A stretch of DNA of 64,000 nt from Leucoraja ocellata (GCA_036785375.1 JAWMAR010000478.1:248001-312000); one strand, 5' to 3'; counted from the first letter of the stretch, positions 5,065 to 58,057 are shown. Notes: a model not told the origin generated them from the sequence alone. Numbers and translations: made by a program.

Positions 5065-6265
5065 CTACACACTGTCCACGGGCAACCTGGGGGATTTGCC
5101 GCTCCGTTGGGCACCGCGGGGGGTGGAATGCATCCTTGACAAGGATTGTAACATAGTTGTATAGTCGTTTATTTAGTATATTTGTTGGTCTTGTATTATG
5201 GGGGTGGGATCTGGTTTGTTTCATTTCATTTTCCAAATCCTCTGCAGAAAACATGTAATGACATAAAAATAGTATCAGGATTAATCTTGCACCTGCTCCA
5301 CTATTAGATGACCATGACTAATTAGATTTAGTTTAGTGTAGTTTAGAGACACAGCGCGGAAACAGGACCTTTGGCCCATCGAGTCAGCGCCGACCAGCGA
5401 TCCCCGCACACTACACACACCCAGTCAAGTCAAGTCAAGTCACTTTTATTTCTATAGTACATTTAAAAAACATCTCTCGTTGACCAAAGTGCTTTACATT
5501 GGTGGAGGTACTAACGTTATACAACAGTGGTTCATAGATTAAGTACATACATAAATACATACATATAGCCCTCCCTCAGAGGACGACAAGAAAGGCTTGA
5601 GAGTAAAGATGAGTTTTAACTCGACTTAAAAGAGTCGATGGAGGGGGCAGTTCTGATGGGAAGGGGGATGCTGTTCCACAGTCACGGAGCTGCAACCGCA
5701 AAGGCACGGTGGCCCCTGAGCTTATGCCTAGACCGCAGGATGTTCAGTAACCCCAAGTCTGCCGATCTGTGGGACCTGGAGGTGGTGTGGTGGGTAAGCA
5801 GGGACAATGTACATTTACAGCAAGCCAATCAACCTACAAACCAGCCCATCTGTGGGGTGTGGGAGGAAACCGAAGATCCCGGAGAAAACCCACGCAGTTC
5901 ACGGGGAGGACGTATAAACTCCGCACAGACAGCACCTGTAGTCAGGATCGAACCCGGGTCTCTGGCGCTGTGAGGCAGCAACTCTACCGCTGCGCCACTG
6001 TGCCGCCCTTTGTCAGATTTCCAGCGTCTGCATTTCATTATTATTATTACTCACCAATGCCACACAGAGAGCTGCTTGCTATGAAACTTGTTATAGAACA
6101 TGGTGCTACAAGAGCAAGAGCTTCAGAATAGCATTAGCAACAATCCCACAGGATTCTCAAAATATATATTTAATACCTACGAGTGGATTTTGTAACTGCA
6201 GGTAAAGACTGTTTAACAGACTATCATTTGATAGAAGCAATTATTGTCAATGTTAATAGTTACCC

Positions 6266-8890
6266 CAATAAAATCGCTGAAAAATGGTAAGACACCGGGA
6301 CCAGATGGTTTTAATAATTAATTTTATAAAAAATTTCAAGAGATAATGACCCCTTATTTATTTAATTTATACTCCCATGCTTTTAAAGAAAATAAATTAC
6401 CTGAAACACTAACAGAATCAATTATTACGCTTATTGCAAAAAAAAGATAAAGATTTAGAAGATCCGGGCTCGTACAGAGCTATATCACTTTTAAATACAG
6501 ATCAGAAAATTTTAGCAAAGATTTTAGCAAGAAGATTAAGCAAATATATTAGTAAATTGATAAACCCTGATCAAACGGGGTTTATGCCTAAAAGATACTC
6601 ATTTAATAATCTGAGACGCCTGTTTAATATAATGTACTTCCATAAAGTAGAGGAAGAAGATATATCAATTATTTCTTTGGATGCAGAGAAAGCATTTGAT
6701 CAGGTAGAGTGGCAATACTTATATAAAGTACTACAAAAATTTAATATGGGAATTTTATAACATGGGTAAAATTATTATATGATAAACCGATGGCAAGAAT
6801 TTTAACCAATAACATGTTATCTCAAAAATTTCAACTATCAAGGGGTAATAGGCAGGGATGTGCACTATCACCCCTGCTATTTGCCCTTATGATAGAACCC
6901 CTGGCTGAAAGTATAAGAATTCATCCGAATATTCAGGGCTATAATACCAGGGATGCATAGAATAAAATCTCATTATATGCAGACGATATACTTTTATACA
7001 TTACAAAGTCACAAACAAGCATACCAAATTTATTAAACTTAATAGAGGAATTTGGGTCTTTTTCTGGATATAGAATAAACTGGAACAAAAGTGAGATCAT
7101 GACATTAAAACCTCAAGAACCTACACACTTATTGAAGTTCCCCTTTAAAATCGCAACAGAAAAATTTAAATATTTGGGTATTCAGATTACTAGAAAATAT
7201 AAAGCATTATTCAACGCTAATTTCATACCTTTATTAAATAAACTTAATACGCTGATTAAATTTTGGAAAACACTTCCCTTATCATTATTAGGTAGAATAA
7301 ATGCAATAAAAATGATCTTCCTACCACAATTACTATATCTATTTCAGTCTATACCGGTATATATACCAAAATATTTTTAAAAAAAAATTAGACTCTAACA
7401 TTACAAATTCTATTTGGGACTATAGATCACATAGAATCACAAAAAACACTTATGTAAACCAAAAGAGGTCGGGGGACTTTCACTTCCGAAATTCACTTCC
7501 GAATTTTATGTATTATTACTGGGCCGTGCATATTAAGAATATGATTTATTGGTTGGATAGTTCTACCCAACAGACAGAATGGATAAAAATGGAGAAGGAG
7601 GATTGCCATCCTTGTAATATAGGAACGATCCTCTTTTCCCCCAAAAAACTGAATAACACAATATATAAGAAGAACCCAATTATATATGGTACAATAAGAA
7701 TTTGGAAACAAATAAAATTATCTTTGAAATTAAGAAATCTATCACTGTTAATGCCAATAGCAAATAACCCTTTATTTAAACTATCTCTTATTGATAAGAC
7801 ATATAACCAATGGGAAAGACTCGGAATTAGAAGGATCAGGGATATGTACGAAATGGGAAACCTACTATCATTCCAACAACTACAATTAAAATTTAAATTG
7901 AAAAACAACCAATATTTTAAATATCTTCAGATTTGCGACTTTGTGAAAAAATATATACAAGGATATCAAAAAGTAACTCCTGACTTATTGGAAGAAGCAA
8001 TGAATATTGAAGCTGACTCACAAAAATGAATATCATATTTATATAATAGTATTCTAAATATAGACCTACCATCGACAGAGGTACTTAGAGAAGAGTGGGA
8101 ACGGGATCTAATGATAAAAATTTCTAAGGTTAAATGGGAAAAATACCTGATATATATTCACAAATGTTCAATTAATGTAAGACATAATCTAATTCAATTT
8201 AAAATTGTACATAGATTATATTATTCAAAAACAAGATTGAACAAATTTTACCCAAATATATCCGCCACTTGTGATAAATGTCTAGCCCAAAAGGCAACTA
8301 TAACACACTCCTTAGTTTCCTGCATAAAACTTTATAGATTTTGGAATGATATTTTTGAAATATTTACAAAATTATTCAAGACAAGAATGGAACCTAATAC
8401 TGAAATGATTATATTTGGTGTAATGGAAGATGGGAATAAATTGAACACATCTCAAAATCTATTCCTTAACTATGGTTTAATAATAGCAAAAAAATGAATA
8501 CTTAAATTTTGCAAGTGTACATCAATACCAACGCTTAAAATGTGGATTGCAAGTATGTTGGACACCGCTCATTTTGAGGAAATGCGATTCCTCCTAATGG
8601 ATAAATCAGACCAATTCATAACGAGTTGGTCTCCATTCGTTGTTTTTTTGGAATCATATGGTGCAACACAATTGTAAAAAATAACTGTTTCAGGACTGGA
8701 CGAGGGTTGGTCAAGATTATAAATAATGATCTCCTTTTCTTTTTTATTTTCTTTTCTTTTCTCTATTTTCTCTCTCAACTTTCTTCATTTACTCGTTTTC
8801 ATTCTTCACACGCTATATATTTCACATCTTTCTATCCTTTACTATCTAACTTCTTTTTCTTATTCTATTCTTAAAAAAAAAAAAAAAAAA
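6266..8890 (+). mobile_element. 5'-truncated L1 LINE (ORF2 RT to C-terminus), AT-rich, degenerate
   Basis: YRAISLLNTD, LDAEKAFD, RQGCALSP, LYADD, CDKC..H..C; poly(A) at about 8873-8890; imperfect 13-bp TSD 6253-6265/8891-8903. Confidence 0.92.
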
Positions 8891-9149
8891 TCAATATTTA
8901 CCCGCGGAACAGTCTGGGTTCTAAAGAAACAGAGGCTTTTTTAAAGAGATACAGCGGGGAAACAGGCTCTTCAGCCCACCAAGTCCGCACCGACCATCGC
9001 ACATCCGTTCACACACTAGTTCTATGTTATCCCACTATTTAATCTACAGAGGGTTAATTAATCTATGAAACCCAAGGTAGTTAAGGCTGGTGCAGCGCTT
9101 TCTCCCCATCGCCTCTCCCTCCTCACCACCCCTCCCTCCATCCTCCCAC

Positions 9150-9341
9150 CTACCACTTCCGCTGCTTGGACTGGAACCAGAGCTCCGCGTATTCCACCCC
9201 CTCGCCACTGTGCCCGGTGGCTCCGCTGCTCAGCACCTCCTGCAGGTTGGCGTACACGACTGCTTGCTCTTCCCCCTCTCCCGATTCCCCTCCTTCTTTC
9301 CGCTCCACTGGGGCCGGCCCGTTCTCTCCACTCCCCGCGCT
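9150..9341 (-). CDS. Paralogous Siglec-like terminal ITIM exon (VVYANL, VEYAEL)
   Basis: Reverse complement of 57364-57543 with an in-frame 12-nt addition (ERKE); intact acceptor and TAG. Confidence 0.85.
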   Translation of the reverse strand, partial: SAGSGENGPAPVERKEGGESGEGEEQAVVYANLQEVLSSGATGHSGEGVEYAELWFQSKQRKW

Positions 9342-10627
9342 CTGGAAGGAAAGGGAAGCAGACGGGCAGTTGTGGGTTTAGTACAGAGCAGTGTGGCCCG
9401 GCATTTAATACCATCAGTGAGAAGGTTCACAACTCCTGTACTCCCACAGACCCAGGTTCAGCCATGTTGTTGATGTTCTCCTCTCACACACTCTCGCTCT
9501 CCTTCTCTCTCCGCCTCTCTCACTTTCTCTCCCTCTCCCTCTCCCTCTCACTTGCAGTTTCACACTTTCTCTCTCCCCCTTTCTCCCTCTCCTCTTTCTC
9601 TTACTCGCTCACACTCAGGCACTGTGTCTCTCACACTCGCAGTTTCACCCACTCTCTCTCTCTCTCTCTCTCGCCCCGTCTCCCCCTCTCTCCAACTTTC
9701 TCTCTCTCTCTCACACCCACTCTCACACTCACACTCTCACATAGTTAGATAAATCAATATTCATACCCCAGGTTGCTAAATACTTTAATTCCCCTTCCCA
9801 CACTGACCTTTCTGTCCTCGGTCGCCTCCATTGACAGAGTGAGGCTAAACACAAATTGGAGGACCAGCATCACATATTCCGTTTGGGCAGCTTACAGCCC
9901 AGTGATATGAACATTGATTTCCCTCACTTGAGGTAGCCCTGTATTCCCTCTCTCTCCATCCCTCGCCCACCCAAGTTGCACCAGCTTCTCGTTTTCACCC
10001 AACAAACCACTAACAGTGGCCTGTTTCCTTTATCATCGTTACTTTGTTTACATCTATTTTTCATTCATTGTTCTTTATCTCTCTCTACATCATCATCTAT
10101 ATAGAGTCATACATCGTGGAAACAGGCCCTTCTGCCCAACTTGCCCACACCGGCCAACATGGCCCAGCTATACTGGTCCCACCTGCCTGCGTTTGGTCCA
10201 TGTACCTTTCTGTTTCTTAAACGTTGGGATAGTCCCAGCCTCAACTACCTCCTCCAGCAGCTCGTTCCATACACGCACCACCCTTTGTGTCAAAAAGTTA
10301 CCCCTCAGATTTTTTCCCCTTCACCTTGAACCTATGTCCTCTGGTCCTCGATTCCCCTACTCTGGGCAAGAGACTGTGCATGTACCCAATCTATTCCTCT
10401 CATGATTTTATACACCTCTATAAGATCACCCCTCATCCCCCTGCACTCCAAGGAATAGAGTCCCAGCCTCCTCAACCTCTCCCTGTGGCTCAGGCCCCTC
10501 GAGTCTCGACCGAAACGTCACCTGTTCCTTCTCTCCAGAGATTCTGCCTGTTCCACTGAGTTACTCCAGCTTTTTGTACCCACTTTTGTATCATCTGTAG
10601 TTGAGATTAAATACAAAGTTCCACTAC

Positions 10628-24068: not shown

Positions 24069-27000
24069 GTTTGTGGAAAATATGACTTCCCTTTTATTTG
24101 CTTTTTTTTAATGATGCATGCTGATATGAGTTTTTTTCTCCTATATGATATCTAAATGCTTTCTGAGACCAGGTCCTTCCATTTCACTCCACTGGTTTAC
24201 TTTGAGAATGTGTCTGAGGCCGGCCGGCTTCACCCTCAGCAACGCTGCATTGATGCATATGCGGCTCATGCAAGCGGTTTCCCCAGTCTGTGTACGATGC
24301 GCTTGTGACGTGGACCCTGCTCCTCCATCCACTGTGAGGTTCCCATGGTAGGCGAGGAAACCGTGTGTGTGTGTGGGACCCCGGTGAGTGTGGGCGGAAG
24401 GGAGAGCGATGTCAATGTCAGGAAATGGGGGCGAGACGCAAGGAACTGCTGATGCAGGATTACAAATCAACACAGCACTGGAGTAATTCAGTGGGTCAGG
24501 CAGCATTTGTGGAGGACATGGATAGGCCACGTTTCGAATCGGGACTCCGTGAGGAGGGACTGCTGTGAGGGACAGAGGGTAGGAGGGTCTGAGTTGTGAT
24601 GGATGAGGGTTTGAGGGGAAGTCAGGAGGGACTGAGGGATGGGGAGACTGGGTAAGGAGTGAACAGTTCCTCACACAGAACAGCGCTTCCTCATCATCCC
24701 TTCCACAACACGGCACTCCTTCACCCCCTCCAGCCACAGTGTAGCTCTCCCTCCTCACTCTCTAGTACAATGCAGCGCTCCCTGTTCACCACCCCTCCCT
24801 CAGCGCAGTTCTCCCTCCTCACCGCCCCTGGCGGAAACACATGCATTCTCACCCGATGGACAGACAGAAGACAAGAAAGAAGTCAGAGTTTTTGTTTTAG
24901 TTTAATCACAGATACAATGTGGAAACAGGAACCACGTCCCCGCCGACCAGCGATCACCTGTACATTAGTTCTATCCTACACACTAGGGACAATTTACAGT
25001 GGCCAATTAATCTGTAAACCTATCTGTCTCTTGAATATAGGAGTGCACCTGGAGGAAACACACATGGTCACAGGGAAAACGTGTCAACACAATACAGACA
25101 GCACCCATAGGCAGAATCTAACTTGGGTCCCTGGCGTTGTAAGGCAGCAACTCTACCACTGTGCCACCATGCCGTCCTTGCGATCCCCCATCGCAGATTC
25201 AAGTAAGACTGAGCCACTAGGCCAAACCCGAGACCACCAGCAATGGTCAGGTCTGGACTGCTGGAAAGAAGCCTATACAAGGCTTCAACCTCAGGCTTAT
25301 AGAGTGGCCTTGGCAAGTCTGAGGTGCTAGTGATTCTTCTGGCCCACAGACAACGACGGACTGTACCCACACACATACACACAGGCATAGACTGGCCGCC
25401 AGGATAATCAAGAGACTGCAATCATCACTTCTTCAAGCCCAAAGGTTGAGCTGCCAGGAAGAAATCTGCACTGCCAGCACTGCTTATGGCAAAGGTGGAC
25501 TGCAGAAAGAAGCCTGAGGTCGCCACAACTCCTCCTTTGAAGATCACAGGAATAAGATGTTGGGACAAGCCCGAGATCACCAGCATCTTGCCTAACGGCG
25601 CCAGAGACCCAGGTTCAATCCCGACTATAGGTGCTTGTCTGTACGGAGTTTGTACGTGTGTGTTTCCCCGAGATCTTATGTTTCCTCCCACACTCCAAAG
25701 AGGTACAGTTTGTTGGTTAATTGGCTTAGTATAAATGTAAATTGTCCCCAGTGTGTGCTGCAAAGTTTCTGCGCTGTTTCTCTAAAGTAAACTAAAAAAA
25801 ATCAATGCTGTTAATGGTCTTGCCATTAACTCTACACTCTCTCCTTGTGCCTTCATCCTCCCAAAGTGCGCACCTCACACTTGCTCAGATTAAACTCCTT
25901 CTGCCATTTCTCCGCCCATTTCTGCATCTGATTTTCATCCCAACGTATCTTCCGACAGCTTACTCACTGTCTGCAACTCCTCCACACTTGGTGTCGTCAG
26001 CAAACTCACTCAGCCACACAGTGGCGGACGGGGTCTAAAAATATTGGTTGTCAGGAGACAAAGGGGGCCCACCCACAACTACAATGCTATCATTTAATTT
26101 TCATAACGAATAAATAACATTTTCAAAAAATACATATGAAAAAAAGGGTACAATTAAAATGTTTGTGGAAAAAATGTGTATTTCTTAGTAATTACAGTGT
26201 ACATGTACTGTACATATTACTGGCAGTCGATACCAAATGTAAATACAGAATGTTATAATTGAATTCTTTATTTACTTTTTTACATTAGTAATTGGTTGAT
26301 ATTTTTAAATAGTTTACTGCACAATTTACACATTAACATAGTTCAAAAGCACAATAGAGCATTGCATGGTCCACTATATTAAGAGTAATCGTTTGTGTTC
26401 GCTGATGATTGTGCGAATCTGCCAATAATTGCTTCTGCATCCAATTCATCTAACAATTCCTTTTCAATGGATAGCAACATGTATGATTCAAAATTCTCCT
26501 CAGACAGCAAATTTCTTAACCTTGTCTTTATGATCTTTAGGTTTGAAAATGTCCTCTCACATTGGATTGAGTAACTGATAGTGTGCAGATGACTTTATAA
26601 AGTTCATAAAGGTTATCATATGCCTTGTCATGAAGTCTGTTGGATGCCAGAATTTTTAGAACACCGATGGGCAAGTGCTGCAGATTTTACAATTGTTGCA
26701 ACTGGAATCCATATTCTCACCATCATTAAGCAATAGTTTTTATACATCAAAGTTTGAAGCAAAAGAAAACAATTCCAATATTACTTGATCTTTGCTGATT
26801 TGTGGAAACAGCTTAATAATACCTTCCAATGCTTCATCTTCAAGGCCCTTCTCTGCAATATTTTTAAACTTTGCTGGGTCCAAGCAGGACAAATCTTTAT
26901 ATAACTGTTTGTATTGTAGAAAGCGTGATTCTAGTGACTGGACAATGCGATCCATTATTGGGTTAAACACATTTACCCCAAAATCAGCGAGAGAATCTGA

Positions 27001-27952
27001 GGAATTTCTTTCATCATCAATAAGCTCATCTGCCATTCTTTTCTTCTTCCTCTGCCTCTTAACTGGCAATGCTGTTTCCAATGCATCAATTTCCAATGTG
27101 TGATTTTCATCCATATTCATCTGTGAAATCCTGTCATTACACTTATTTACAAATTCCAAAGCCTTGCTGTGAACGTTATCAAATGTTCTTGTCTGTTCCT
27201 TCAAGTTTGTTGTAGCTGAATCTAGTAAACTCCATGCTGTAAAAATATCTAAACCACTTGTCTGTAGATAACTTGACAACAGGGTTGTCGTTTCAAATAT
27301 ATACAAGTAAGTAAATGCTGTCAATATGGTTTCAAACTTTAGAAGACTTTGAAGTAAAACATTTGCTTCATGTTTTGTTTTTGCATCAAACTTTTCTGAA
27401 TCTTATATCATTGATAAGCATGTCAATAGATTTACGAAAGTACTGCCAGTGGCATAATCAAAGCGTCCAAATATAGTTGTTGCTGCATTGGATTTTCCTG
27501 ACCATCTGGTCTCACCAATTAGCTTTAATCGTTTCATTTTTTCTTGTCCTAGATGTTTTCCACCAACTTCTATCCATACAGCCATTCTCTTGTATGATGC
27601 TTTCATAAAAGTTGCTATATTCTGGAGCAAATTGAAAAAAGAAACTGCAGGCACACAACATTTTGTTGTTTCAGTTATCACCAAATTCAAGACATGGGCA
27701 TAGGACCACATATGAACATGTTGATCAGCCACATCAGCAATTTTACTTTGTAATCCATTATACTGGCCATGGTAGCTTGCAGCGCCATCTGTGCTATCGG
27801 ATAAAAAAATTTGGGGGGCGATTTTAAGATGCTGTAATGTTTCAATCAATAGATCAAAAAGTCCCTGTCCTGTACCATCATTACTTGGCACAACTGAAGG
27901 TAGTCGCTCACAGATAATACCTTTAAGCACATACCGAATAATAATGCTACTG

Positions 27953-30900
27953 ATCACTGATGATGTGTTCAGGAGCATCTATTGATGTATTTGTATCAAT
28001 CACTGTGCTGGTGAAACCAGTGGCGACCAGGAATAGACTGGTTGACAACCAAGAATAGGGTGGTGACGACTGGAGAGACAGTGGACAGCTCGGAAAGACG
28101 GTAACCGGGGTGGGGCAGGTTGGCAGCCCAAACCGCATCCTCTGAGAGGAGGAGACCCAAATCACGCTACAGAAAACACATGGAAAAATACCCCCAGGGT
28201 GCCCGAAGGGGGGGGGAGGGGGGGGGGGGGGGGGGGGAGGATGAGCACCTCTATTGGATGGATCAAAGGTTCACGACTAATGGCAATGGACAACCGACTA
28301 TGAGTATCAAATGCAGATGTGGTAAGGTTTGCAAGAACAGCCGAGGCCTGAAGATTCACCAGACCCGGATGAAGTGTTTGGATGGACAGGGAGTGTCACA
28401 ACGCACAGGTATTTTACCTGGTGAGACGCAGGAGGAGCCAGGCCCGGAATCACCCCATAGAGCCCGAAGCCTCCAAGTGGCGCAACTAGTCCCTCGGAAC
28501 AGTTCTCCGGAGAAGGTTCGAGTCAGATGGCCTCAGGCCTGCAAGACGGCAGTCTGGCATCAGTTCGACGAGGACGTCGACAAGGTGCTGGAAGCAACTG
28601 CGAAGGGAGACATGGACCTAAGGCTGCGGTCGATGACAACAATCATCATCAGCCTAGCTGTGGAAAGGTTTGGAGAAGTGGAGAAGAAGCCGTCCTGAAC
28701 ACCTTTCACCATGAACCAACGAGCAACGAAGATCCACAAGATCCGGCACAAGCTGAAGTCCCTCAAGAAGCAGTATGACGAGGCCAGGGAAGAGCAACGT
28801 CCCCCCTTGGCTGAGCTGTGAACCATCCTGAGGAAGAAGCTGATGACCCTCCGTAGGGCTGAGTGGCACCGAAGACGCCGGAAGGAAAGAGCCAGGAAGC
28901 GAGCATCCTTCATAGCCAACCCCTTCGGCTTCACCAAACAACTACTCGGGCAGAAGCGCAGTGGGAGTTTGGCTTGCCCTAAGGAGGAGATCGACCGGCA
29001 CATCCAGACGACCTACAGTGACCCCATCAGGCAGCAGGAGCTGGGCCAATGCAACATCCTGATAAAACCACCTCCACCCATCAAGGAGTTTGATAGTAGA
29101 GAGTCATTCCTGAAAGAGGTCCAGGACATTGTGAAGAGAGCAAGAGCTGGCTCAGCCCGTGGCCCGAGCGGAGTCCTCTACAAGGTCTACAAGAACTGCC
29201 CCTTGTTACTGAAACTGCTGTGGAAGATCCTGAAAGGCATCTGGAGGAGAGGAAAAGTGGTGCAGCAGTGGCGATTCGCTGAAGGAGTCTGGATCCCAAA
29301 GGAGGAAGGTTCCTAAAAGATCGATCAGTTCAGAATCATCGCCTTGCTAAGTGTTGAAGGCAATATTTTCTTCAGCATAGTGGCGAGGTGGCTGACCAAC
29401 TTCCTCTCCAGCAATGGTTACATCGACAGCTCAGTGCAAAAGAGAAGCTTATCTGGAGTGCCGGGGTGTCTAGAGCACATGGGAGTGGTGTCCCAGCTCA
29501 TCAGAGAAGCCAGGGAGAACAAGGGTGACCTGACAGTGCTCTGGCTTGACCTGGCCAACGCCTACGGCTCCATCCCGCACAAGCTGATCCAGACAGTCAT
29601 GGCCAAGCATCATGTGCCGGGCCAAGTGGCAGATCTCATCCTGGACTATTACAACCAGTTCAGCATGAGAGTCTCATCAGGGTCAGTAACATCAGAGGGG
29701 CAGAGACTGGAGGTTGGGATCATCACAGGCTGTACCATCTCTGTGATCCTTTTTGCCTTGGCGATGAACATGATCGTCAAGTCTGCTGAGCCAGAGTGCC
29801 GGGGCCCCCGGACCAAGTCAGGAATGCGCCAACCACCAATCAGAGCCTTCATGGCCGAGCACTGAGTCAGTGCCAGGAGGCAGGTGGATCCTGTAGGGGT
29901 TGGAGAAACGGATTGGATGGGCAAGGATGAGGTTTAAGCCAGGACAATCAAGGTCACTGGTGCTGAAGAAGGGCAAAGTCATGGACAGGTTCCGCTTCAA
30001 CATCGAAGGGACACCATTCCCAACTGTCTCCGAAAGGCCGGTGAAGAGTCTTGGCAAGGTGTTTAACAGCAGCCTGAAGAATACAGCATCTGTCCAGGCA
30101 ACCTGTCAGGAGCTGGAGAGCTGGTTGAGAGCAGTGGATCGGTCGGGGCTTCCCGGCAAGATCAAGGAATGGATTTACCAGCATGGTATCCTGCCAAGGA
30201 TACTCTGGCCACTGCTTGTCTACGAAGTCCCAATATCCATTGTAGAGAGATTGGAGAGGAAAGTCAGCAGCTTTCTCAGAAGGTGGCTGGGATTGCCCAG
30301 GAACCTTAGCAACATCGCCTTTAACGGAAATAACACCAAGCTCCAGCTGCCCCTGCAGTCCCTGGAGGAGGAGTTCAAGGTGACTCGGGCCAGAGAGGTG
30401 ATGCTGTACAGGGACTCCAGCGACCCCAAGGTGGCTCAAGCAGGGGTGGAGGTGTAAACTGGGAGGAAGTGGAGAGCCGGCGAAGCCGTGCTGCAAGCAG
30501 AGTCTCGGATACGCCACAGAGTCCTGGTGGGAGCAGTGACTCGGGGAAGAGCAGGCCTGGGAATCTTCCCATCTCCCCAGTTTGACAAGGCCAAGGGGAA
30601 GGAGAGGCGCAGGCTGGTCCAGGAGGAAGTGAGGGCAGTGGTGGAGGAGGAGAGGTGTAGCAGAGCAGTTGGATTGAGGCAGCAGGGAGCCTGGACAAGG
30701 TGGGAGCAGGCCATGGACCGAAAATTCACATGGACTGAGCTCTGGCTGGATGAACCACAGCGCATCAAGTTCCTGGACCAGGCAGTGTATGATGTCCTGC
30801 CCAGCCCATCGAACCTCTTCATCTGGGGCAAAGCGGAATCTCCAGATTGCCCGCAATGCTCAGGCAAGGGGACGTTGGAACACATCCCGAGCTGTTGCCC

Positions 30901-31662
30901 AAAGGCTCTTGGGCAGGGCCGCTACACATGGCGTCACGACCAGGTTCTCAAACCCATTGCAGAAGCCATCAGCATGGGAATCAGCAGCTGCAGACGAGAA
31001 CGCCCCACCACCCAGATGATCACCTTCGCGAAGGCCGGAGTGCAGCTGCCAAGAACCACAGCAGCCAGCCAGGAATCCGTCAGGAATCCTGGCGACTGCG
31101 CAGGGCTGGCAGCTTTCCGTAGACCTGGTGAAACAGCTGAAGTTCCCACAGCACATTGCCATGACCACCCTGAGGCCAGATATCCTCCTGGTCTCAGAGG
31201 CGACCAAAAACATCGTCTTGTTGGACCTGACAGTGCCGTGGGAGGACCGTCTGGAGGAGGCCCACGAGAAGAAGATGGCCAAATATGAAGAACTGGTCAT
31301 GGACTGCCGCAAGCAGGGCTGGAAGGCAAGGTGTATGCCCATCGAGGTTGGCTGCAGAGGTTTTGCATGGCAATTGCTCTACAAAGCTTTGAGTGCACTG
31401 GGCATAAACAGAGTGGCAAGGAGAAGGGCCATCAAGAACACCACAGAGGCAGCGGAGAAGGCCTCGAGATGGCTCTGGATCAGGAGAGGAAGACAATGGG
31501 GAGGAGCGAATGCCTCCTGAACACAAGTCGTGGTCTGATCAACCACGGCTGGGTCGCCTGGGTGAGGGTGTCTGATGTTGAAAGACCTGAAACATCCAAT
31601 GACCCCAGGTTACATCACTGAATATGTGTTCAGGAGCATCTATCGATGTATTTGTATCAATC
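27953..31662 (+). mobile_element. Near full-length RLE-type non-LTR retrotransposon (Hero/R2-like clade), ORF about 28180-31520 with stops and frameshifts
   Basis: N-terminal zinc finger CRCGKVC..H; RT motifs DLANAYGS and GCTIS; CCHC knuckle CPQC..H..C; RHD; RPD..LTVPWE..K..KY restriction-like endonuclease. The catalytic FMDD region is deleted. Confidence 0.9.
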
Positions 31663-32254
31663 GATGGATGAATTTTATCTTGTGTTGAATCAACCAATAG
31701 AATAATATTGTGCTTGAGAAACTTCATGACTAATTCTTTCTTGTATCATATTCTTCATAATTTTGATTAACATGTTTATAGTAGTTTTACTCAGGTATGT
31801 AACAAGTCCACCACGGCCTTTACTTTGAGCCTTTCCTTGTTGCTCTAATCATTTGATTCTTTGTTTAGACTTGTTTTGCACTGCAGAAACATGAGCTGCC
31901 ATAATGGGGTCATATTTTGCCATCAACTACACTGTAGTTAAAAAATTGCCTTGATTCTGAACCTCATTATCTAGAATGTAGGCCGATTCATTTCTGTGAC
32001 CTCGAAAAGGAAGTGCTTGCTTGCCTAACATCTTCATGATGTCTATAATCCTCATGACAATACTTCTCTGCTTCAATACTTCTTCTTTCCTTTTAATTAG
32101 TGATGCTGCTGCAAAAAAATTATCTAAGGTGGCATCATTAACCACATTGATAGATTGCGGAGTATTTCTGACATGTTGTTGTCGATTTATGTAAATGAGA
32201 TCATTACCATGCATAACTAGTAATTTACGTTTGAATTCTCATGTAGTTGAACTT

Positions 32255-35200
32255 AGAAACATAGAAAATGGGTGCAAGAGGCCATGCGGCCCTTCGAGCC
32301 AGCACCGCTATTCATTGTGATCATGGCTAATCGTCCCCTATCAATCACCCGTGCCTGCCTTCTCCCCATATTCCTTGACTCCACTAGCCCCTAGAGCTCT
32401 ATCTAACTCTCTCTTAAATCCATCCAGTGATTTGGCCTCCACTGCCCTCTGTGGCAGGGAATTCCATAAATTCACAACTCTTGGAGAAAAAGTTTTTCTC
32501 ACCTCAGTCTTAAATGGCCGCCCCTTTATTCTAAGACTGTGCCCCTGGTTCTGGACTAGCCCAACATTGGGAACATTTTTCCTGCATTTAACTTGTCCAG
32601 TCCTTTTATAATTTTATATGTTTCTATAAGATCCCCCTCAACCTTCTAAACTCCAGTTTAATACAAGCCTAGTCTTTTCAATCTTTTCTCATATGACAGT
32701 CCCGCCATCCCAGGGATCAATCTCGTGAACCTACGCTGCACTGCCTCAATCACAAGGATGTCCTTCCTCAAATTAGGAGACCAAAACTGTACACAATACT
32801 CCAGATGTGGTCTCACCAGAGCCCTATACAACTGCAGAAGAACTTCTCTACTCCTATACTGAAATCCTCTTGTTATGAAGGCCAATATTCCATTAGCTTT
32901 CTTCACTGCCTGCTGTACCTGCACGCCAACTTTCAGTGACTGGTGTACAAGGACACCCAGGTCTCGCTACACCCCCCCCTTACCTAACCTAACCCCATTG
33001 AGATAATAATCTGCCCCCTTATTTTTGCTGCCGAAGTGGATAACCTCACATTTATCTATATTATACTGCATGCCACGCATCTGCCCACTCACTCAACCTG
33101 TGCAGGTCACCCTGCAACCTCCTAACATCCTTTTCACTGTTCACACTGCCACCCAGCTTTGTGTCATCCGCAAACTTGCTAGTGTTGCTCCTAATTCCCT
33201 CTTCCAAATCGTTAATATATATGGTAAACAGTTGCAGCCCCAACACCGAGCCTTGCGGCACTCCACTCACCACTGCCTGCCATTCTGAATAGGACCCGTT
33301 CACTCCTACTCTTTGCTTCCGGTCTGCCAACCAATTTTCTGTCCATGTCAACACCCTACCCCCAATACCATGTGCTCTAATTTTAGTCACCAGTCTCCCG
33401 AGTGGGACCTTATCAAAGGCTTTCTGAAAGTCTAGATACACTACATCCACTGGCACCCCTTCAGCCATTTTACTTGACACATCCTCAGAAAATTCCAGAA
33501 GATTAGTCAAGCATGATTTCCCTATCATAAATCCATGTTGACTTGGACTAATCCTTTTACTGCTACCCAAATGCCCCATTAGGCACAAGGCATTGGGGGT
33601 TCAGTATTGATGTGGATAGAGAACTGGCTGGCAAACAGGAAGCAAAGAGTAGGAGTAAACGGGTCCTTTTCACAATGGCAGGCAGTGACTAGTGGGGTAC
33701 CGCAAGGCTCAGTGCTGGCACCCCAGCTATTTACAATATATATTAATGATCTGGATGAGGGAATTGAAGGCAATATCTCCAAGTTTGCGGATGACACTAA
33801 GTTGGGGGGCAGTGTTAGCTGTGAGGAGGATGCTAGGAGACTGCAAGATGACTTGGATAGGCTGGGTGAGTGGGCAAATGTTTGGCAGATGCAGTATAAT
33901 GTGGATAAATGTGAGGTTATCCATTTTGGTGGCAAAAACGGGAAAGCAGACTATTATCTAAATGGTGGCCGATTGGGAAAGGGGTAGATGCAGCGAGACC
34001 TGGGTGTCATGGTACACCAGTCATTGAAGCTAGTTATGCAGGTGCAGCAGGCAGTAAAGAAAGCGAATGGTATGTTAGCTTTCATTGCAAAAGGATTTGA
34101 GTATAGGAGCAGGGAGGTTCTACTGCAGTTGTACAGGGTCTTGGTGAGACCACACCTGTAGTGTTGCGTACAGTTTTGGTCTCCAAATCTGAGGAAGGAC
34201 ATTATTGCCATAGAGGGAGTGCAGAGACGGTTCACCAGACTGATTCCTGGGATGTCAGGACTGTCTTATGAAGAAAGACTGGATAGACTTGGTTTATACT
34301 CTCTAGAATTTAGGAGATTGAGAGGGGATCTTATAGAAACTTACAAAATTCTTAAGGGGTTGGACAGGCTAGATGCAGGAAGATTTTTCCCGATGTTAGG
34401 GAAGTCCAGGACAAGGGGTCACAGCTTAAGGATAAGGGGGAAATCCTTTAAAACCGAGATGAGAAGAACTTGGACAAAGTCCATTGGACAAAGTCAGCAT
34501 GGATTTACGAAAGGTAAATCATGTCTGACGAATCTTATAGAATTTTTCGAGGATGTAACTAGTAACGTGGATAGTGGAGAACCAGTGGATGTGGTGTATC
34601 TGGACTTCCAGAAGGCTTTCGACAAGGTCCCACATAAGAGATTAGTATACAAACTTAAAGCACATGGCATTGGGGGTTCAGTATTGATGTGGATAGAGAA
34701 CTGGCTGGCAAACAGGAAGCAAAGAGTAGGAGTAAACGGGTCCTTTTCACAATGGCAGGCAGTGACTAGTGGGGTACCGAAAGGCTCAGTACTGGGACCC
34801 CAGCTATTTACAATATATATTAATGATCTGGATGAGGGAATTGAAGGCAATATCTCCAAGTTTGCGGATGACACTAAGCTGGGGGGCAGTGTTAGGTGTG
34901 AGGAGGATGCTAGGAGACTGCAAGGTGACTTGGATAGGCTGGGTGAGTGGGCAAATGTTTGGCAGATGCAGTTTAATGTGGATAAATGTGAGGTTATTCA
35001 TTTTGGTGGCAAAAACGGGAAAGCAGATTATTATCTAAACGGTGGCCGATTGGGAAAGGGGGAGATGCAGCGAGACCTGGGTGTCATGGTACACCAGTCA
35101 TTGAAGGTAGGCATGCAGGTGCAGCAGGCAGTAAAGAAAGCGAATGGTATGTTGGCTTTCATAGCAAGAGGATTTGAGTATAGGAGCAGGGAGGTTCTAC

Positions 35201-36570
35201 TGCAGTTGTACAGGGTCTTGGTGAGACCACACCTGGAGTATTGCGTGCAGTTTTGGTCTCCAAATCTGAGGAAGGACATTATTGCCATAGAGGGAGTGCA
35301 GAGAAGGTTCACCAGACTGATTCCTGGGATGTCAGGACTGTGTTATGAAGAAAGACTGGATAGACTTGGTTTATACTCTCTAGAATTTAGGAGATTGAGA
35401 GGGGATCTTATAGAAACTTACAAAATTCTTAAAGGGGTTGGACAGGCTAGATGCAGGAAGATTGTTCCCGATGTTGGGGAAGTCCAGGACAAGGGGTCAC
35501 AGCTTAAGGATAAGGGGGAAATCCTTTAAAACCGAGATGAGGAGAACTTTTTTCACACAGAGAGTGGTGAATCTCTGGAACTCTCTGCCACAGAGGGTAG
35601 TTGAGGCCAGTTCATTGGCTATATTTAAGAGGGAGTTAGATGTGGCCCTTGTGGCCAAGGGGATCAGAGGGTATGGAGAGAAGGCAGGTACGGGATACTG
35701 AGTTGGATGATCAGCCATGATCATATTAAATGGCGGTGCAGGCTCGAAGGGCCGAATGGCCTACTCCTGCACCTAATTTCTATGTTTCTATGTAACTTTT
35801 TTTTCACACAGAGAGTGGTGAATCTCTGGAACTCTCTGCCACAGAGGGTAGTTGAGGCCAGTTCATTGGCTATATTTAAGAGGGAGTTAGATGTGGCCCT
35901 TGTGGCTAAGGGGATCAGGGGGTATGGAGAGAAGGCAGGTACGGGATACTGAGTTGGATGATCAGCCATGATCATATTGAATGGCAGTGCAGGCTCGAAG
36001 GGCCGAATGGCCTACTCCTGCACCTAATTTCTATGTTTCTATGTTTCTATTATTACCTCTTTTTTAATAATTGACTCCAGCATCTTTCCCACCACCGACG
36101 TCAGGCTAACTGGTCTGTAATTCCCCGTTTTCTCTCTCACTCCTTTCTTGAAATGTGGGATAACATTAGCTATCCTCCAATACACAGGGACTGATCCTGA
36201 ATCTATTGAACATTCGAAAAAGATCACCAATGCGTCCACTATTTCTAGAGCCACCTCCCTGAAGACCCTGGGATGCAGACTATCAGGCCCAGGGGATTTA
36301 TCATCCTTCAGTCCCATTAGCCTATAACCATATAACAATTACAGCACGGAAACAGGCCATCTCGACCCTTCTAGTCCGTGCCGAACACATAATCTCCCCT
36401 AGTCCCATATACCTGCGCTCAGACCATAACCCTCCATTCCCTTCCCATCCATATAACTATCCAATTTATCCAATTATACGCCTACCCAATACTGTTCCTC
36501 GCCTAATGAAAATTTCTTTCAGTTCCTCTACCCCCTTAGATCCTCTGTCCTCCAGTACTTCTGGGAGATG
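32255..36570. mobile_element. CR1 stack: a minus-strand CR1 (32255-33580 and 36049-36570) split by three tandem plus-strand CR1 pieces (about 33581-34468, 34482-35792, 35793-36048)
   Basis: RT motifs LDFQKAFDKVPH, GVPQGS and FADD; (TTTCTATG)n tails; GAACTT duplicated at 32249-32254 and 36571-36576. Confidence 0.9.
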
Positions 36571-41370: not shown

Positions 41371-43692
41371 GTACGTAATTCCGTGTCTGTGGCTCGTTCC
41401 CACGAACAACCACCAGTTCAGCTGAGTTGCGACTTTGTGCAGAGTCTGATCACTGAAATACTTTGTGTATTGAGGTAACTGCAGATGCTGATTCACACCA
41501 AAGATAGACACAAAGCGCTGGAGTAACTCAGTGGGACAAGCAGCATCTCTGGTGAATTTAGTTTAGTTTATTGTCACGTGCACTGAGTTACAGCGAAAAG
41601 CCTTTGTTCCAAGATAACCGGTCAGAGGGAAGACAACACATGTTTACAATCAAAGATAGACACAAAATGCTGGAGTAACTCAGCGGGACAAGCAGCATCT
41701 CGTCTTGACCTGAAGTGTCACCCATTTCTTCTATCCAGAGTCTATAGATATGGAAGGGTAAGGTGTGAAAACCCATTCCTTCTCTCAGGAGATGCTGCCT
41801 GTCCTGTTGAGTTAAGCCAGCATTTTGTGTCTAACTTCGGTTTAAACCAGCATCTGCAGTTCCATCCTACATATGATTACAATTGTTCCATTTACAGTGT
41901 ACAGATAGGGGAATAGTGTTCAGTGCAACGTAAAACCAGCAAAGTCTGATCAAGGATAGTCCGAGGGTCATCAAAAAGGTAGGCAGTAGTTCAGTGCTGC
42001 TCTCTGGTTGTGGTTGGATGATTCAGTTGGGCAGAAACTGTCCCCGAATCTGAGAATCAGAGAGAAGGAATGGGTGATGTTTTGGGTTCGAGACTGTCTT
42101 TCAGACTGAAAGTCAGGTGAGGGGGAGGCACAGAGATAAGGAAGCGAAAGGTGTGAAAACAAGGCAAAGAGAATGAGGTTGGATGAAAATGTAGAATAGA
42201 TCATTGTTAGCTAGGAGAAGGTGACAACGAAGCAAACAGAGATAAGATTTAATCAAGGGGACGGTCAGACTGGTTGTAGAATAGGAAAGGGGAGGGATGG
42301 AGAAAGAGGGAAAGCAAGGCTACGAAGTTAGAGAAGTCGATAATCGTACCGATGTAAGCTGCCCAAGCGTAATATGAGGTGCTGTTCCCCAATTTGCGTT
42401 GGGCCTGACTCTAACAGTAAAGGAGGCCCAGGACAGAAAGGTATTTCTGTGTCTCCCTCCCCCATGACTCTCAGTATATATTGTACTCAATATTGTGAGC
42501 AATTTTGGGCCCCATATCTGAGGAAGGATGTGCTGGCTCTGGAGAGGGTTCAGAGAAGGTTTACATGAATGATCCCAGGAATGAGTGGGTTAACATATGA
42601 TGAGCGTTTGATAGCACTGGGCCTGTACTCGCTGGAGTTTAGCAGAATGAGGGGGGGGGGGGGAACATACAGAATAATGAATGGCTTGGATAGAGTGAAC
42701 GTGGAGAGGATGTTTCCACTAGTGGGTGAGTCTAGGACTAGAGATTACAGCCTCAGAATTAAAGGATGTTCTTTTAGGAAGGAGATGAGGAAGGACATCT
42801 TCAGTCAGAGGGTGGTGAATCTGTGGAATTCTTTGCCACAGTAGACTGTAGAGGCTAAGTCAGTGGATTATTTAAGGCAGAGATGGATAGATTCTTGATT
42901 TGTACTGGTGTCAGAGGTTATGGAGAGAAGGCAGGAGAATGGGGTTAGGAGATAGAGATAGGTCTGCAATGATTGAATGGTGGAGCAGACTTGATGGGCC
43001 GAATGGCTTAATTCTGCTCCTATCATTTATGACCTTATACAGTACGACCAGCCTGGGTTGCGTGCAAACACTGAATTCTGGTACACATGGCAATTATACA
43101 ATCATACCAATAGATGGGCTGAAAAAAGGGCTGGCATGGACATGGTGGGCCGAAGGACCTGTTGCATAGAAACATAGAAACATAGAAATTAGGTGCAGAA
43201 GTATGCCATTCGGCCCTTCGAGCCTGCACCGCCATTCAATATGATCATGGCTGATCATCCAACTCAGTATCCCGTACCTGCCCTCTCCATACCCCCTGAT
43301 CCCCTTAGCCACAAGGGCCACATCTAACTCCCGCTTAAATATAGCCAATGAACTGGCCTCAACTACCCTCTGTGGCAGAGAGTTCCAGAGATTCACCACT
43401 CTCAGTGTGAAAAAAGTTCTTCTCATCTTGGTTTTAAAGGATTTCCCCCTTATCCTTAAGCTGTGACCCCTTGTCCTGGATCTTGGATGGAGGAGCTGTT
43501 CCCAAAGCAAGCTGCGATGCATCCTGATACAATCTATCTTCTGTCTACACTATTACTAAAACTCTCATCTTGACCACTTCCCCTCTGTGTTGTTTTTAAG
43601 TTTGCTCAAAAACGGTTCAGATGTCGCCCGTCCACAAGCTGCCGAGAATAAAGCTGAAGCAGCAGAGTGTGGGCTGTTGACCGCACTCAAAC

Positions 43693-44030
43693 ACTCCCCC
43701 TCCCCTACACCCCCCCTCCCATACACCCCCCTCCCCTACACCCCCCACTCCTACACCCCCTCCCCTACATCCCCCCCTCCCCTACACCCCCCCCTCCCCT
43801 ACAGCCTCCCTCCCTACATCCCCCTCCCCTACACACCCCCACTCCTACACCCCCTCCCCTACACCCCCCTCCCCTACACCCCCTCCCCTACATCCCCCCC
43901 TCCCCTACACCCCCCCTCCCCTACACCCCACTCCCCTAAACCGCCCCTCCTCTACACCCTCCCCCCTACACCCCCCTCCCCTACACCCCCCGCCCCCATA
44001 AACCCCCTCCCCACACACCCCTTCCCCCTT
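43693..44030 (+). repeat. C-rich (CCCCTACACCCCCCT)-type tandem repeat
   Basis: Seen directly; about 15-bp period. Confidence 0.9.
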
Positions 44031-45249
44031 CATTCCAATGACATGCAGGTTTGTAGGCTAATTAGCTTAGCAACATTGTAAATTGTCCCTAGCGTGTGTA
44101 GGATAGTGTTAGTGTGTGAGGGATCGCTGGTCGGCACAGACTCGATTGGTCGAAGGGCCTGTTTCCACGTTGTATCTAGACTAAACACAGAACTAGTGTG
44201 TGAACGGGTGATCGCTGGTTGATGCGGGCACGGTGGGGTAAAGGTCCAGTTTCCGTGTTGTATCTCAAAAAGTAAACATAGAACTAGTGTGTGAAGTGGT
44301 CGGCATGGTCTGTGGGCCGTGGGAGCCTGTTTCTGTGCTGTATCTCTAAACTAAAATAAGCTCTGAGCAATTTCTTGTGGTCTTGGGCAGAGCTGGTCCC
44401 AAACCAAAGTGTAATGCAACCTAACAGTGTTCTTTCGTAGTTCATGTGGAGAAGTTGGTGTGAGTCACTGGAGAAATGCTGAACTTCCTTCATCTTTTGA
44501 GCAAGATGAGACATCAGTTGCTTTATTGACCACAGCTTCAATGTAGTCGGTGCAGCGTATGCTGTTGGTGATATTTACAGACATGTGATAGGAGCAGAAT
44601 TAGGCCATTCAGCCCATCAAATCTACTCCGCCTTTTAATCATGGCTGATCCATCTCCCTACTAATCCCATTCTCCTCCCTTCTCCCTATAACCCGTGGCA
44701 CCCGGACAAATTCACAATCTATCTTTCTCTGCCTCAACAATATCCACTGACTGGGCCGCCACAGCCTTCTGTGGCAAAGAATTCCACAGATTCACCACCC
44801 TCTCACTAAAGAAATTCCTCCTCATCTCCTTACTAGAACAACGTTGAATTCTGAGGCTATGATCCTCCCAGTAATGGAAAAGTCCTATCCACATCCACTC
44901 TATCCAAGCCTTTCACTATTCGGTAAGTTTCAATGTGGTCCTCCCTCATTCTTCTAAACTCCAGCTAGTACAGACCCAGTGCTGACAAACACTCTCATAT
45001 GTAAACACACTCATTCCTGGGACCATTCCTGTAAACCACCTCTGGACCTCCAGAGCCAGCACATTCTTCATCAGATACAGGGCTCAAAAGTTCTCACAAT
45101 ATTCCAAATGTGGCCTCACCAGCTCCTCATAGAGCCTCAGCATTGCATTCATGTTGCTTAATGTATATTGGTCGCTGGAGTTTTACTGCAATAACTTTCT
45201 CTTCCAGACCGGGAGATCGGGTATCTGACGGGATATCTGGGATCGGACA

Positions 45250-45289
45250 ATGATCGGGAGATCGTTCTTCGTCCTCTCCCTTCTCCAAG
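45250..45289 (+). CDS. Siglec-like gene, signal-peptide exon (MIGRSFFVLSLLQ-); exon starts about 45208
   Basis: Acceptor ctttctcttccag at 45207, ATG at 45250, hydrophobic leader, phase-1 donor G|GTACC that joins in frame to the V-set exon. Confidence 0.75.
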
Positions 45290-45321
45290 GTACCATCAGC
45301 AGCAACTCAGAAGTGTTTACG

Positions 45322-45724
45322 GGGAGTGATGCACTGGGGGAGGGGCGGTGAGGAGGGAGTGATGCACTGGGGGAGGGGCGGTGAGGAGGGAGTGAAGAAT
45401 TGGGGGAGGGGCGGTGCGGAGGGAGTGATGCACTGTGGGAGGGGCGGTGAGGAGGGAGTGATGCACTGTGGGAGGGGCGGTGAGGAGGGAGTGATGCATT
45501 GGGGGAGGGGCGGTGAGGAGGGAGTGATGCATTGGGGGAGGGGCGGTGAGGAGGGAGTGATGCACTGTGGGAGGGGCGGTGAGGAGGGAGTGATGCATTG
45601 GGGGAGGGGCGGTGCGGAGGGAGTGATGCACTGTGGGAGGGGCGGTGCGGTGCGGAGGGAGTGATGCACTGGGGAGGGGCGGTGAGGAGGGAGTGATGCA
45701 CTGGGGGAGGGGCGGTGAGGAGGG
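45322..45724 (+). repeat. 33-bp G-rich minisatellite, about 12 copies
   Basis: Unit GGAGTGATGCACTGGGGGAGGGGCGGTGAGGAG; 11-aa periodicity in the overlapping ORFs. Confidence 0.95.
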
Positions 45725-45860
45725 AGACTCTACCACTACGCCATCATGCTGCTCTTCTACGCTCTGTTCACACCGGGTCCACAGCGCAGGATAAACGGTG
45801 TGGAAAGTCCAGTGAACTGACAGGGTGTTCACTGCTAAAGATTGTTCCTTCTCTCCTCAG

Positions 45861-56034: not shown

Positions 56035-57363
56035 GTAGTGGAACTTTGTATTTAATCTCAACTACAGATGATACACACGTGGGTACAAAATGCTGGAGTA
56101 ACTCAGTGGAACAGGCAGAATCTCTGGAGAGAAGGAACAGGTGATGTTTCGGTCGAGACTCGAGGGGCCTGAGCTACAGAGAGAGGTTGAGGAGGCTGGG
56201 ACTCTATTCCTTGGAGCACAAGGGGATGAGGGGTGATCTTATAGATGGGTATAAAACCATGAGAGGAATAGATCAGGTAGATGCACAGAGACTCTTGCCC
56301 AGAGTAGGGGAATCGAGGACCAGAGGACATAGGTTCAAGGTGAAGGGGAAAAAAATCTGAGGGGTTACTTTTTCACACAAAGGGTGGTGCGTGTATGGAA
56401 CGAGTTGCTGGAGGAGGTAGTTGAGGCTGGGACTATCCCAACGTTTAAGAAACAGTTAGAAAGGTACATGGACAGGACAAGTTTGGAGGGATATGGACCA
56501 AGCGCAGGCAGGTGGGACTAGTGTAGCTGGGCCATGTTGGCCGGTGTTGGCAAGTTGGGCAGAAGGACCTGTTTCCACAATGGATGACTCTATATAGATG
56601 ATGATGTAGAGAGAGATAAAGAACAATGAATGAAAGATAGATGTAAACAAAGTAACGATGATAAAGGAAACAGGCCACTGTTAGTGGTTTGTTGGGTGAA
56701 AACGAGAAGCTTTGTGCGACTTGGGTGGGGGAGGGATGGAGAGAGAGGGAATACAGGGCTACCTCAAGTGAGGGAAATCAATGTTCATATCACTGGGCTG
56801 TAAGCTGCCCAAACGGAATATGTGATGCTGGCCCTCCAATTTGTGTTTAGCCTCACTCTGTCAATGGAGGCGACCGAGGACAGAAAGGTCAGTGTGGGAA
56901 GGGGAATTAAAGTATTTAGCAACCGGGGGTATGAATATTGATTTATCTAACTATGTGAGAGTGTGTGAGTGTGAGAGTGGGTGTGAGAGAGTGGGTGTGA
57001 GTGTGAGACAAAGTTTGAGAAAGAGGGAGACGAGGCGAGAGAGGGAGAGAGATAGTGGGTGAAACTACGAGTGTGAGAGACACAGTGCCTGAGTGTGAGC
57101 GAGTGAGAGAAAGAGTAGAGGGAGAAAGGGGGAGAGAGAAAGTGTGAAACTGCAAGTGAGAGGGAGAGGGAGAGAGAGAAAGTGAGAGAGGGGGAGAGAG
57201 AAGAAGAGTGAGGGTGTGCGAGAGGAGAACATAAACAACATGGCTGAACCTGGGTCTGTGGGAGTACACGAGTTGTGAACCTTCTCACTGATGGTATTAA
57301 ATGCCGGGCCACACTGCTCTGTACTAAACCGACAACTGCCCGTCTGCTTCACTTTCCTTCCAG

Positions 57364-57543
57364 AGCGCGGGGAGTGGAGAGAACGGGTCGGCCCCAGTAG
57401 GAGGGGAATCAGGAGAGGGGGAAGAGCAAGCGGTCGTGTACGCCAACATGCGGGAGGTGCTGAGCAGCGGAGACACCAGGCACAGTGACGAGGGGGTGGA
57501 ATACGCGGAGCTCTGGTTCCAGTCCAAGCAGGGGAAGGGGTAG
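57364..57543 (+). CDS. Siglec-like terminal exon with tandem ITIM-like motifs (VVYANM, VEYAEL)
   Basis: Acceptor ctttccttccag; 59 codons then TAG; two V-x-Y-x-x-(L/M) motifs. Missed by the ORF track. Confidence 0.85.
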   Translation, partial: SAGSGENGSAPVGGESGEGEEQAVVYANMREVLSSGDTRHSDEGVEYAELWFQSKQGKG

Positions 57544-58057
57544 GTGGGAGGATGGAGGGAGGGGTGGTGAGGAGGGAGAGGCGATGGGGAGAGAGCGCTG
57601 CACCAGCTTTAACTACCTTGGGTTTCATAGATTAATTAACCCTCTGTAGATGAAATAGTGGGATAACATAGAACTAGTGTGTGAACACATGATCGATGGT
57701 CGGTGCGGACTTGGTGGGCTGAAGGGCCTGTTTCCCCGCTGTATCTCTTTAGAAAAGCCTTTGTTTCTTTAGAACCCAGACTGTTCCGCGGGTAACTATG
57801 AACATTGAGAATAATTGCTTCTATCAAATGATAATCTGTTACACACAGTCTTTACCTGCAGTTACAAAATCCACTCATAGCTATTAAATGAAGACCTTTA
57901 TTTTTTGAGAATCCTGTGGGAATTTTGCTAATGCTATTCTGAAGCTCTTGCTTTTGTAGCACCATGTTCTATAACAAGTTTCATAGCAAGCAGCTCTCTG
58001 TGTGGCATTGGTGAGTAATAATAATAATGAAATGCAGACGCTGGAAATCTGACAAAG

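Follow-up and report, generated by a model that had tools for sequence, protein, structure and literature searches.

The 64-kb stretch of DNA analysed here (64,000 nucleotides, hereafter the window) contains a hAT transposase pseudogene on the minus strand that is interrupted by a retrotransposon on the plus strand, and the last 49 nt of this retrotransposon are found a second time directly upstream of its 5′ UTR. By similarity, and not by a tree, we file the element as a probable full-length, decayed member of the HERO clade of non-LTR retrotransposons with a restriction-like endonuclease (RLE). The locus is composed of the following features:

26403–27952, minus strand: hAT transposase pseudogene, C-terminal part (tblastn with P0001: 73–83% identity, residues 424–934)
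27953–28001, plus strand: upstream tail, a copy of the element's last 49 nt (46/49 to 31614–31662); its first ATC is common to the host
28002–28179, plus strand: 5′ UTR of the full-length copy with two short hairpins at its start; homologous sequence occurs in 10 antisense ORFs and in the extended N termini of P0109 and P0175
28180–31520, plus strand: single ORF, decayed, with 5 in-frame stops and 2 frameshifts (tblastn with P0029)
28312–28377, plus strand: N-terminal zinc-finger-like motif CxCxxxC...H...C, identified from the sequence and kept in the consensus of 20 relatives
29323–29793, plus strand: reverse transcriptase (RT) core (Pfam RVT_1, E 3.9e-11)
30848–30898, plus strand: CCHC knuckle CX2CX7HX4C between RT and RLE, identified from the sequence; spacing as in the RLE LINEs of the available part of PMC5678591
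31176–31286, plus strand: RLE core PD...D...KxxKY, identified from the sequence; motif as in the same part of PMC5678591
31521–31662, plus strand: 3′ UTR without poly(A), holding the 31614–31662 repeat copy; homologous to read-through in relatives; its last ATC is common to the host
31663–32175, minus strand: hAT transposase pseudogene, upstream part (tblastn with P0001: 69% identity, residues 247–424)

One ORF (allowing for the 2 frameshifts) in which the RT is followed by a C-terminal PD-(D/E)xK-like endonuclease, with a CCHC knuckle between the two, is the arrangement of the RLE group. The Met start of the ORF matches MEKYPQG of P0161, and one frameshift near 29857 removes the catalytic aspartates of the RT; this HERO copy is dead. 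Over 1075 aligned positions the ORF is 77% identical to P0029 from Astyanax, its best full-length relative, a likeness persisting through decay that would make a transfer between fish groups likely if the window came from a cartilaginous fish. The many CR1-like LINE copies of the window presumably resemble those of cartilaginous fishes; some of these fragments (33583–36044) lie in direct tandem with spacings of 1077 and 251 nt and a fused ORF at 34162–35529. A run of about 30 G in the N-terminal part of the HERO ORF (28207–28240), where relatives have a short GG codon pair, represents an expansion or sequencing noise.

The RT is 62–69% identical to Takifugu BAC82598.1, which we take to be HEROFr. 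When a profile of 20 relatives was compared with PDB, the best matches were R2 proteins (E 9e-38), and R2 proteins compared with the family profile reached only E 1e-38 to 1e-16. It is not a Penelope-like element (PLE): the RLE motif is present, the best-matching structures are R2 proteins, and a Pfam comparison of six pieces of the ORF (E up to 0.1) gave no match to a GIY-YIG endonuclease. Around an RT motif, 28 of 32 residues are identical (by eye) to HEROTn as printed in the available part of the PMC7650587 supplement. With the HERO clade (HEROTn, HEROFr, HERODr) the element shares the single ORF with RT, CCHC knuckle and C-terminal RLE and perhaps, judging by one insertion, the use of a non-conserved target; fish HERO families are, in the sections available of PMC3636483 and PMC4640811, mostly not site-specific.

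The element interrupts the hAT transposase gene at ATC/GAT (one insertion observed). Joining the flanks with a single ATC kept gives DSTQD...IIIRYV over 19 codons and restores the conserved SSIDQ across the join in the adjacent frame, whereas a single retained 49-mer lengthens the join by 46 nt and disrupts the reading frame. Among 25 homologues examined, 7 fell outside the pattern and 18 matched it; 17 of these 18 span D...RYV in 19 residues, and the 18th (P0014) reads QYV with a 19-residue span by eye, the pattern having overshot. The hAT reading frame also carries about three compensating 2-nt indels within about 60 nt of the insertion site (27940–27952 and 31663–31700), as judged from frame changes relative to homologues. 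Across 26403–32175 on the minus strand the hAT transposase shares 69–83% protein identity with a caddisfly (Arctopsyche grandis) and 76–79% with a spider (Araneus ventricosus), a likeness that, if the host is a vertebrate, suggests horizontal transfer. Elsewhere in the window, 5232–9981 and 56714–58835 are inverted copies of one element (91–97%), the former interrupted by some 2.7 kb of AT-rich sequence (GC 0.29–0.32) that is possibly another DNA transposon, and minisatellites occupy 45256–45749 (33-bp) and 43674–44041 (roughly 12–17-bp).

Local alignment reproduces the match between 27953–28001 and 31614–31662 reported in a preliminary description of this DNA: 46 of 49 nt are identical in an ungapped alignment, the mismatches being two neighbouring substitutions and one C/T at a CpG (blastn E 5e-16 within the 64-kb window). 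Because the hAT motif leaves no room for the repeat, and because a Prochilodus gene model reading through its own 3′ UTR terminates in PGNITEDVSTT, which matches the repeat start, we regard the repeat as 3′ UTR of the element; homologues of the upstream tail lie in the 3′ UTR or at the junction of relatives (including the P0101 read-through). The same description had held that the repeat belongs to the element and that the host transposase appears to rejoin with only ATC shared, and had named the presence of the 49-mer in uninterrupted hAT copies as evidence to the contrary. The first two points agree with our results, and the contrary evidence did not appear: the rejoined span of 19 codons is that of the homologues, which at the protein level are devoid of extra sequence, and the repeat is homologous to the 3′ UTR of relatives.

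ATC is present at all three boundaries (27953, 27999 and 31660), and the element contains the 7-mer ATCACTG at exactly three positions (27953, 27999 and 31614), so that in the head-to-tail sequence both insertion ends sit at ATC followed by ACTG. Apart from poly-G runs and matches of ≤16 nt attributable to chance, the element's 5′ and 3′ ends matched nothing else in the 64-kb window, and no second HERO copy was found there. Folding of the repeat itself is unremarkable (z −0.26). The stretch 28002–28070 behind it folds with z −2.2 (3 of 200 shuffles), a weak signal given that it was one of 7 stretches folded; a hairpin CCAGU...ACUGG lies at the start of the 5′ UTR (28016–28043), and the positions encoding it are invariant or nearly so in 6 aligned antisense peptides.

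Long target site duplications (TSDs) do occur in the group (20 bp in the reptile Utopia according to the available part of PMC4640811, and the title of an R9 paper), but with no space for 46 extra nt in the hAT motif and with homologues of the repeat in the 3′ UTRs of relatives from other hosts, a 49-nt TSD of host sequence is hardly credible and, at the protein level, refuted by the hAT homologues. An LTR retrotransposon was also rejected: the repeat starts and ends with ATC instead of TG...CA, its length varies in relatives, and Pfam gave no integrase match. The absence of terminal repeats, a textbook property of non-LTR elements, does not hold for the 49-nt repeat here and the tails in relatives, and the repeat reads as a second, truncated copy and not as an LTR.

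To look for the same junction in relatives, we used an antisense frame crossing the 5′ UTR and the repeat as a phmmer query against 1.84 billion representatives, which gave 6 matches. A second search, with a profile whose consensus covers almost only the 5′ UTR, returned 3 new sequences among 8 matches, and a cluster look-up 2 more, for a total of 10 antisense ORFs over the 5′ UTR; the first query held the translation of the repeat, and its matches seeded the second search. P0166 (997 aa, 11 stretches) was left out as a probable low-complexity match, and P0170–P0172, P0173 and P0174 turned out to be pieces of ABCC5. For each ORF, up to 30 residues past a 5′ UTR landmark were scored against the element's last 182 nt and compared with 200 shuffles. 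What the relatives contribute is predicted proteins and thereby evidence at the peptide level only.

According to this score, 7 of the 10 antisense ORFs (P0164, P0165, P0167, P0168, P0177, P0179 and P0181; 6 clusters at 90% identity) continue into 3′-end sequence with 0 of 200 shuffles each and scores of 20–34, compared with 8–15 on host flank. Two further ORFs did not reach significance, P0178 with 19/200 shuffles and P0180 with 17/200, the latter offering only 12 residues that are identical to P0177 there. The closest relative (P0163, 78%) ends 3 residues past the landmark and may be a tail-free copy or cut by the contig end. Since frames into a GC-rich tail stay open longer than frames into random flank, and since both searches go back to a query with the repeat, the fraction of 7/10 is to be taken as higher than the frequency in genomes. 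Landmark spacing is 49–52 nt in all 8 measurable ORFs (P0178 included) and 47 in the window. Four of the seven significant ORFs are NCBI records (P0165, P0167, P0177 and P0181, on contigs of 170, 56, 17 and 115 kb), and three are on short Logan or ENA contigs (1.9–6 kb), where repeat collapse can create joins. P0177 and P0181 probably represent one locus because they have the tail end and the flank in common.

HERO loci were also met in GTDB contigs, one of 809 nt (L001) and one of 507 nt (L002), in Alcanivorax profundi and Thalassococcus profundi; both are inside the ORF and, on their short scaffolds, are probably eukaryotic contamination. The GTDB genome contigs yielded no element ends, and the plasmid and phage collections no match to P0161.

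The length of the tail varies. It is 49 nt here. In P0164, P0165 and P0167, whose tails extend into antisense sequence of the terminal part of the ORF, it measures at least 265–270 nt; P0179 has at least about 370 nt, and P0177 and P0181 have about 515 nt, followed by 17–43 residues that no longer match the element. In Labeo rohita, XP_050984423.1 (on a 33 Mb contig) covers about 880 nt of the element's 3′ end, next the 5′ UTR and then a near-complete ORF; together with RXN21104.1, probably the same locus, it places about 800–880 nt of 3′ end before the 5′ UTR. Both are spliced predictions with predicted introns in which the junction bases are not visible, and as such suggest a tail of about 880 nt. 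In the Labeo gene models P0073, P0169, P0072 and P0092 the element sequence breaks off behind HPRLGRP. At the corresponding point of its 3′ UTR (31559–31570) the window carries GTGAG, which resembles a splice donor, and two of these models resume in the next 5′ UTR, corresponding to an intron across the junction that is predicted by gene prediction only. Penelope and Chlamys have an intron at the equivalent place. P0026 (XP_076844394.1) from Brachyhypopomus contains two successive C-terminal halves of the HERO ORF in the same orientation, possibly another tandem; having no 5′ UTR, it was left out of the junction count.

The layout thus appears, as far as these sequences tell, to be a partial tandem of variable length like the pseudo-LTRs of Penelope and not a fixed terminal repeat. 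The preliminary description anticipated 3′ tails of variable length at one junction, and 49, ≥265–370, about 515 and, in Labeo, about 880 nt are what we found, the relatives being read through proteins. Its reading was to fall if no other copy had the 3′-to-5′ junction, which at the protein level is seen in 7 of the 10 relatives' ORFs. The term "49-nt terminal direct repeat" that it used remains accurate for this copy and has to be given up for the family, in which the partial tandem varies in length.

A fixed short terminal repeat, comparable to the R region of retroviral RNA, which the transcript would contain and strand transfer would re-create, would account for the position of both insertion ends, each at an ATC with ACTG behind it, which gives the impression of a defined start and a defined end. 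The relatives' tails, however, exceed this one 5- to 18-fold and differ in length among themselves, and on inspection of the peptides the ATC/ACTG motif is not evident at most of their junctions, which makes a fixed repeat very improbable. We also judge it improbable that a chance template jump happened once in this copy while the joins in relatives stem from assembly collapse or unrelated tandems. Occasional in vivo jumps of R2 are documented (PMC3414825, available part) and three of the seven ORFs with significant scores come from short contigs, but the same spacing recurs in 6 clusters that are about 36–57% identical to each other or to the window, four records are on contigs of 17–170 kb, and one tail ends in non-element sequence, unlike a collapsed circle.

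The main rival is a self-targeted double insertion, in which a full-length copy with a 3-bp TSD (ATC) was followed by a later, heavily truncated copy at its 5′ boundary, like the stacking of R1. ATC at all three boundaries is what a 3-bp TSD predicts, the spacing of 49–52 nt allows 0–3 nt of TSD, and double insertion is the favoured origin of Drosophila non-LTR tandems in the accessible text of PMC2718515 and 10.1101/158386. Repeated use of one site would, however, need self-recognition, a kind of self-targeting that is hypothetical, whereas fish HERO families are described as non-site-specific (PMC3636483, available part). Moreover, a clearly tail-free 5′ end was found in 0 of 10 relatives (3 undecided), and the divergence of the repeats fits a single age. 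On balance, we consider double insertion unlikely.

We favour, with a probability of about 0.65, the reading that the locus is a HERO RLE partial tandem, in which a 5′-truncated upstream copy (49 nt) stands head-to-tail with a full-length copy, and that this arrangement recurs across the family and arises via continued reverse transcription. The tail and the body most likely entered together in a single insertion, with the RT passing the 5′ end into 3′ sequence. Continued reverse transcription predicts a junction that stays fixed while the 5′ truncation varies. In a simulation, five stops in 1048 codons fit 2–5% decay, for which 2–5 mismatches are expected per 49-mer pair; 3 are observed, and the ages of the repeats are compatible with one event, a test of little power.

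Following the TPRT model, the RLE would nick the host at ATC/GAT and the nick would prime reverse transcription at the RNA 3′ end, the ATC microhomology helping, whereupon the RT would copy the entire RNA. It would then go on into 3′-end sequence, either by an end-to-end jump on the same or another element RNA or on a template joined 3′ to 5′, which could be a transcript reading through from a tandem source, or a circular RNA. This second round would halt at a variable point and be joined to the upstream host DNA, in the window at the ATC microhomology, where the junction itself is observed. As to the template, a jump on linear RNA seems slightly more probable than a read-through precursor, each falling short of even odds, and a covalent circle is improbable; a read-through transcript gives the same product but alone cannot regenerate shortening tails. 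The preliminary description had the RT run off the 5′ end onto the 3′ end, and the junctions of the relatives support this in outline, whereas circle, jump and read-through are indistinguishable here and enter as conjecture.

R2 RTs jump between templates in vitro and in vivo (available parts of PMC11371274 and PMC3414825). According to the former, R2 proteins lengthen their products through jumps to additional 3′ UTR RNAs, and endonuclease-dead R2 proteins in cells gave head-to-tail transgene tandems that were attributed to copying of a tandem template; the latter puts in vivo jumps of R2 to snRNA and tRNA on record. No ribozyme, which would have favoured a circle, was found among 7 Rfam matches (E 0.85–4.7, with a cut-off of E up to 5). 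A hammerhead across the junction was tried and rejected, one CUGANGA...GAAA pair having 0 closing pairs for helix II, a weak test given the decay of the copy.

By analogy to Penelope and HeT-A, the tail may supply a promoter for the downstream copy. A stronger version, in which HERO replicates via a 3′–5′-joined template (a circle or an obligatory self-jump), nearly every full-length insertion regenerates the pseudo-LTR and the tail is a required promoter, is speculative and in our view rather doubtful. If the process were obligatory, Penelope-type replication would have evolved independently in a LINE of the R2 group, and a simple single-protein system would be at hand for the regeneration of pseudo-LTRs. 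The ends of HERO consensus sequences may have been cut at the wrong place, and the design of templates for RLE-based gene insertion would be affected, tandem copying being an unwanted product. In the parts available of the literature searched, to which Repbase, the 2004 paper naming the fish HERO elements (Kojima and Fujiwara) and Fell et al. 2025 are external, we found no description of a partial tandem or terminal repeat in HERO; curators may already know the layout.

Among known systems, HeT-A and TART are likewise non-LTR elements arranged head-to-tail. They are telomere-restricted, have no RLE and form their arrays by serial addition at chromosome ends, whereas the HERO copy is interstitial, inside a hAT element. 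R1 builds its tandems by inserting into the TSD (PMC2718515 and 10.1101/158386, as far as available) and, in contrast to the arrangement described here, depends on the fixed rDNA site. The RT of R2 is related to that of HERO, its jumping has been shown, and tandem or extra-template 5′ junctions occur occasionally. The jumps of R2 are occasional, however, whereas the self-junction of HERO is fixed and recurrent across diverged families that are not site-specific.

The layout is that of Penelope, whose pseudo-LTRs consist of a full-length copy preceded head-to-tail by a variably 5′-truncated copy; in the available text of PMC2377424 and PMC8557442 the origin of this layout is stated as unexplained, with no obvious mechanism of regeneration, and PMC8557442 has non-LTR elements lack terminal repeats. 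In HERO, too, the full-length copy follows a copy truncated to a variable extent (the window and 7 of 10 relatives, with tails of 49 to about 515 nt). The two differ in that PLEs combine a GIY-YIG endonuclease with a telomerase-related RT while the HERO element combines an RLE with an R2-like RT, and in that PLEs often come with hammerheads and inverted copies, no hammerhead having been found here. If our reading is true, the same layout exists in a widespread RLE clade of fishes and is independent of the GIY-YIG endonuclease, and template jumping by the RT, or a joined template, would be indicated as its general cause, which could then be tested with an R2-like protein.
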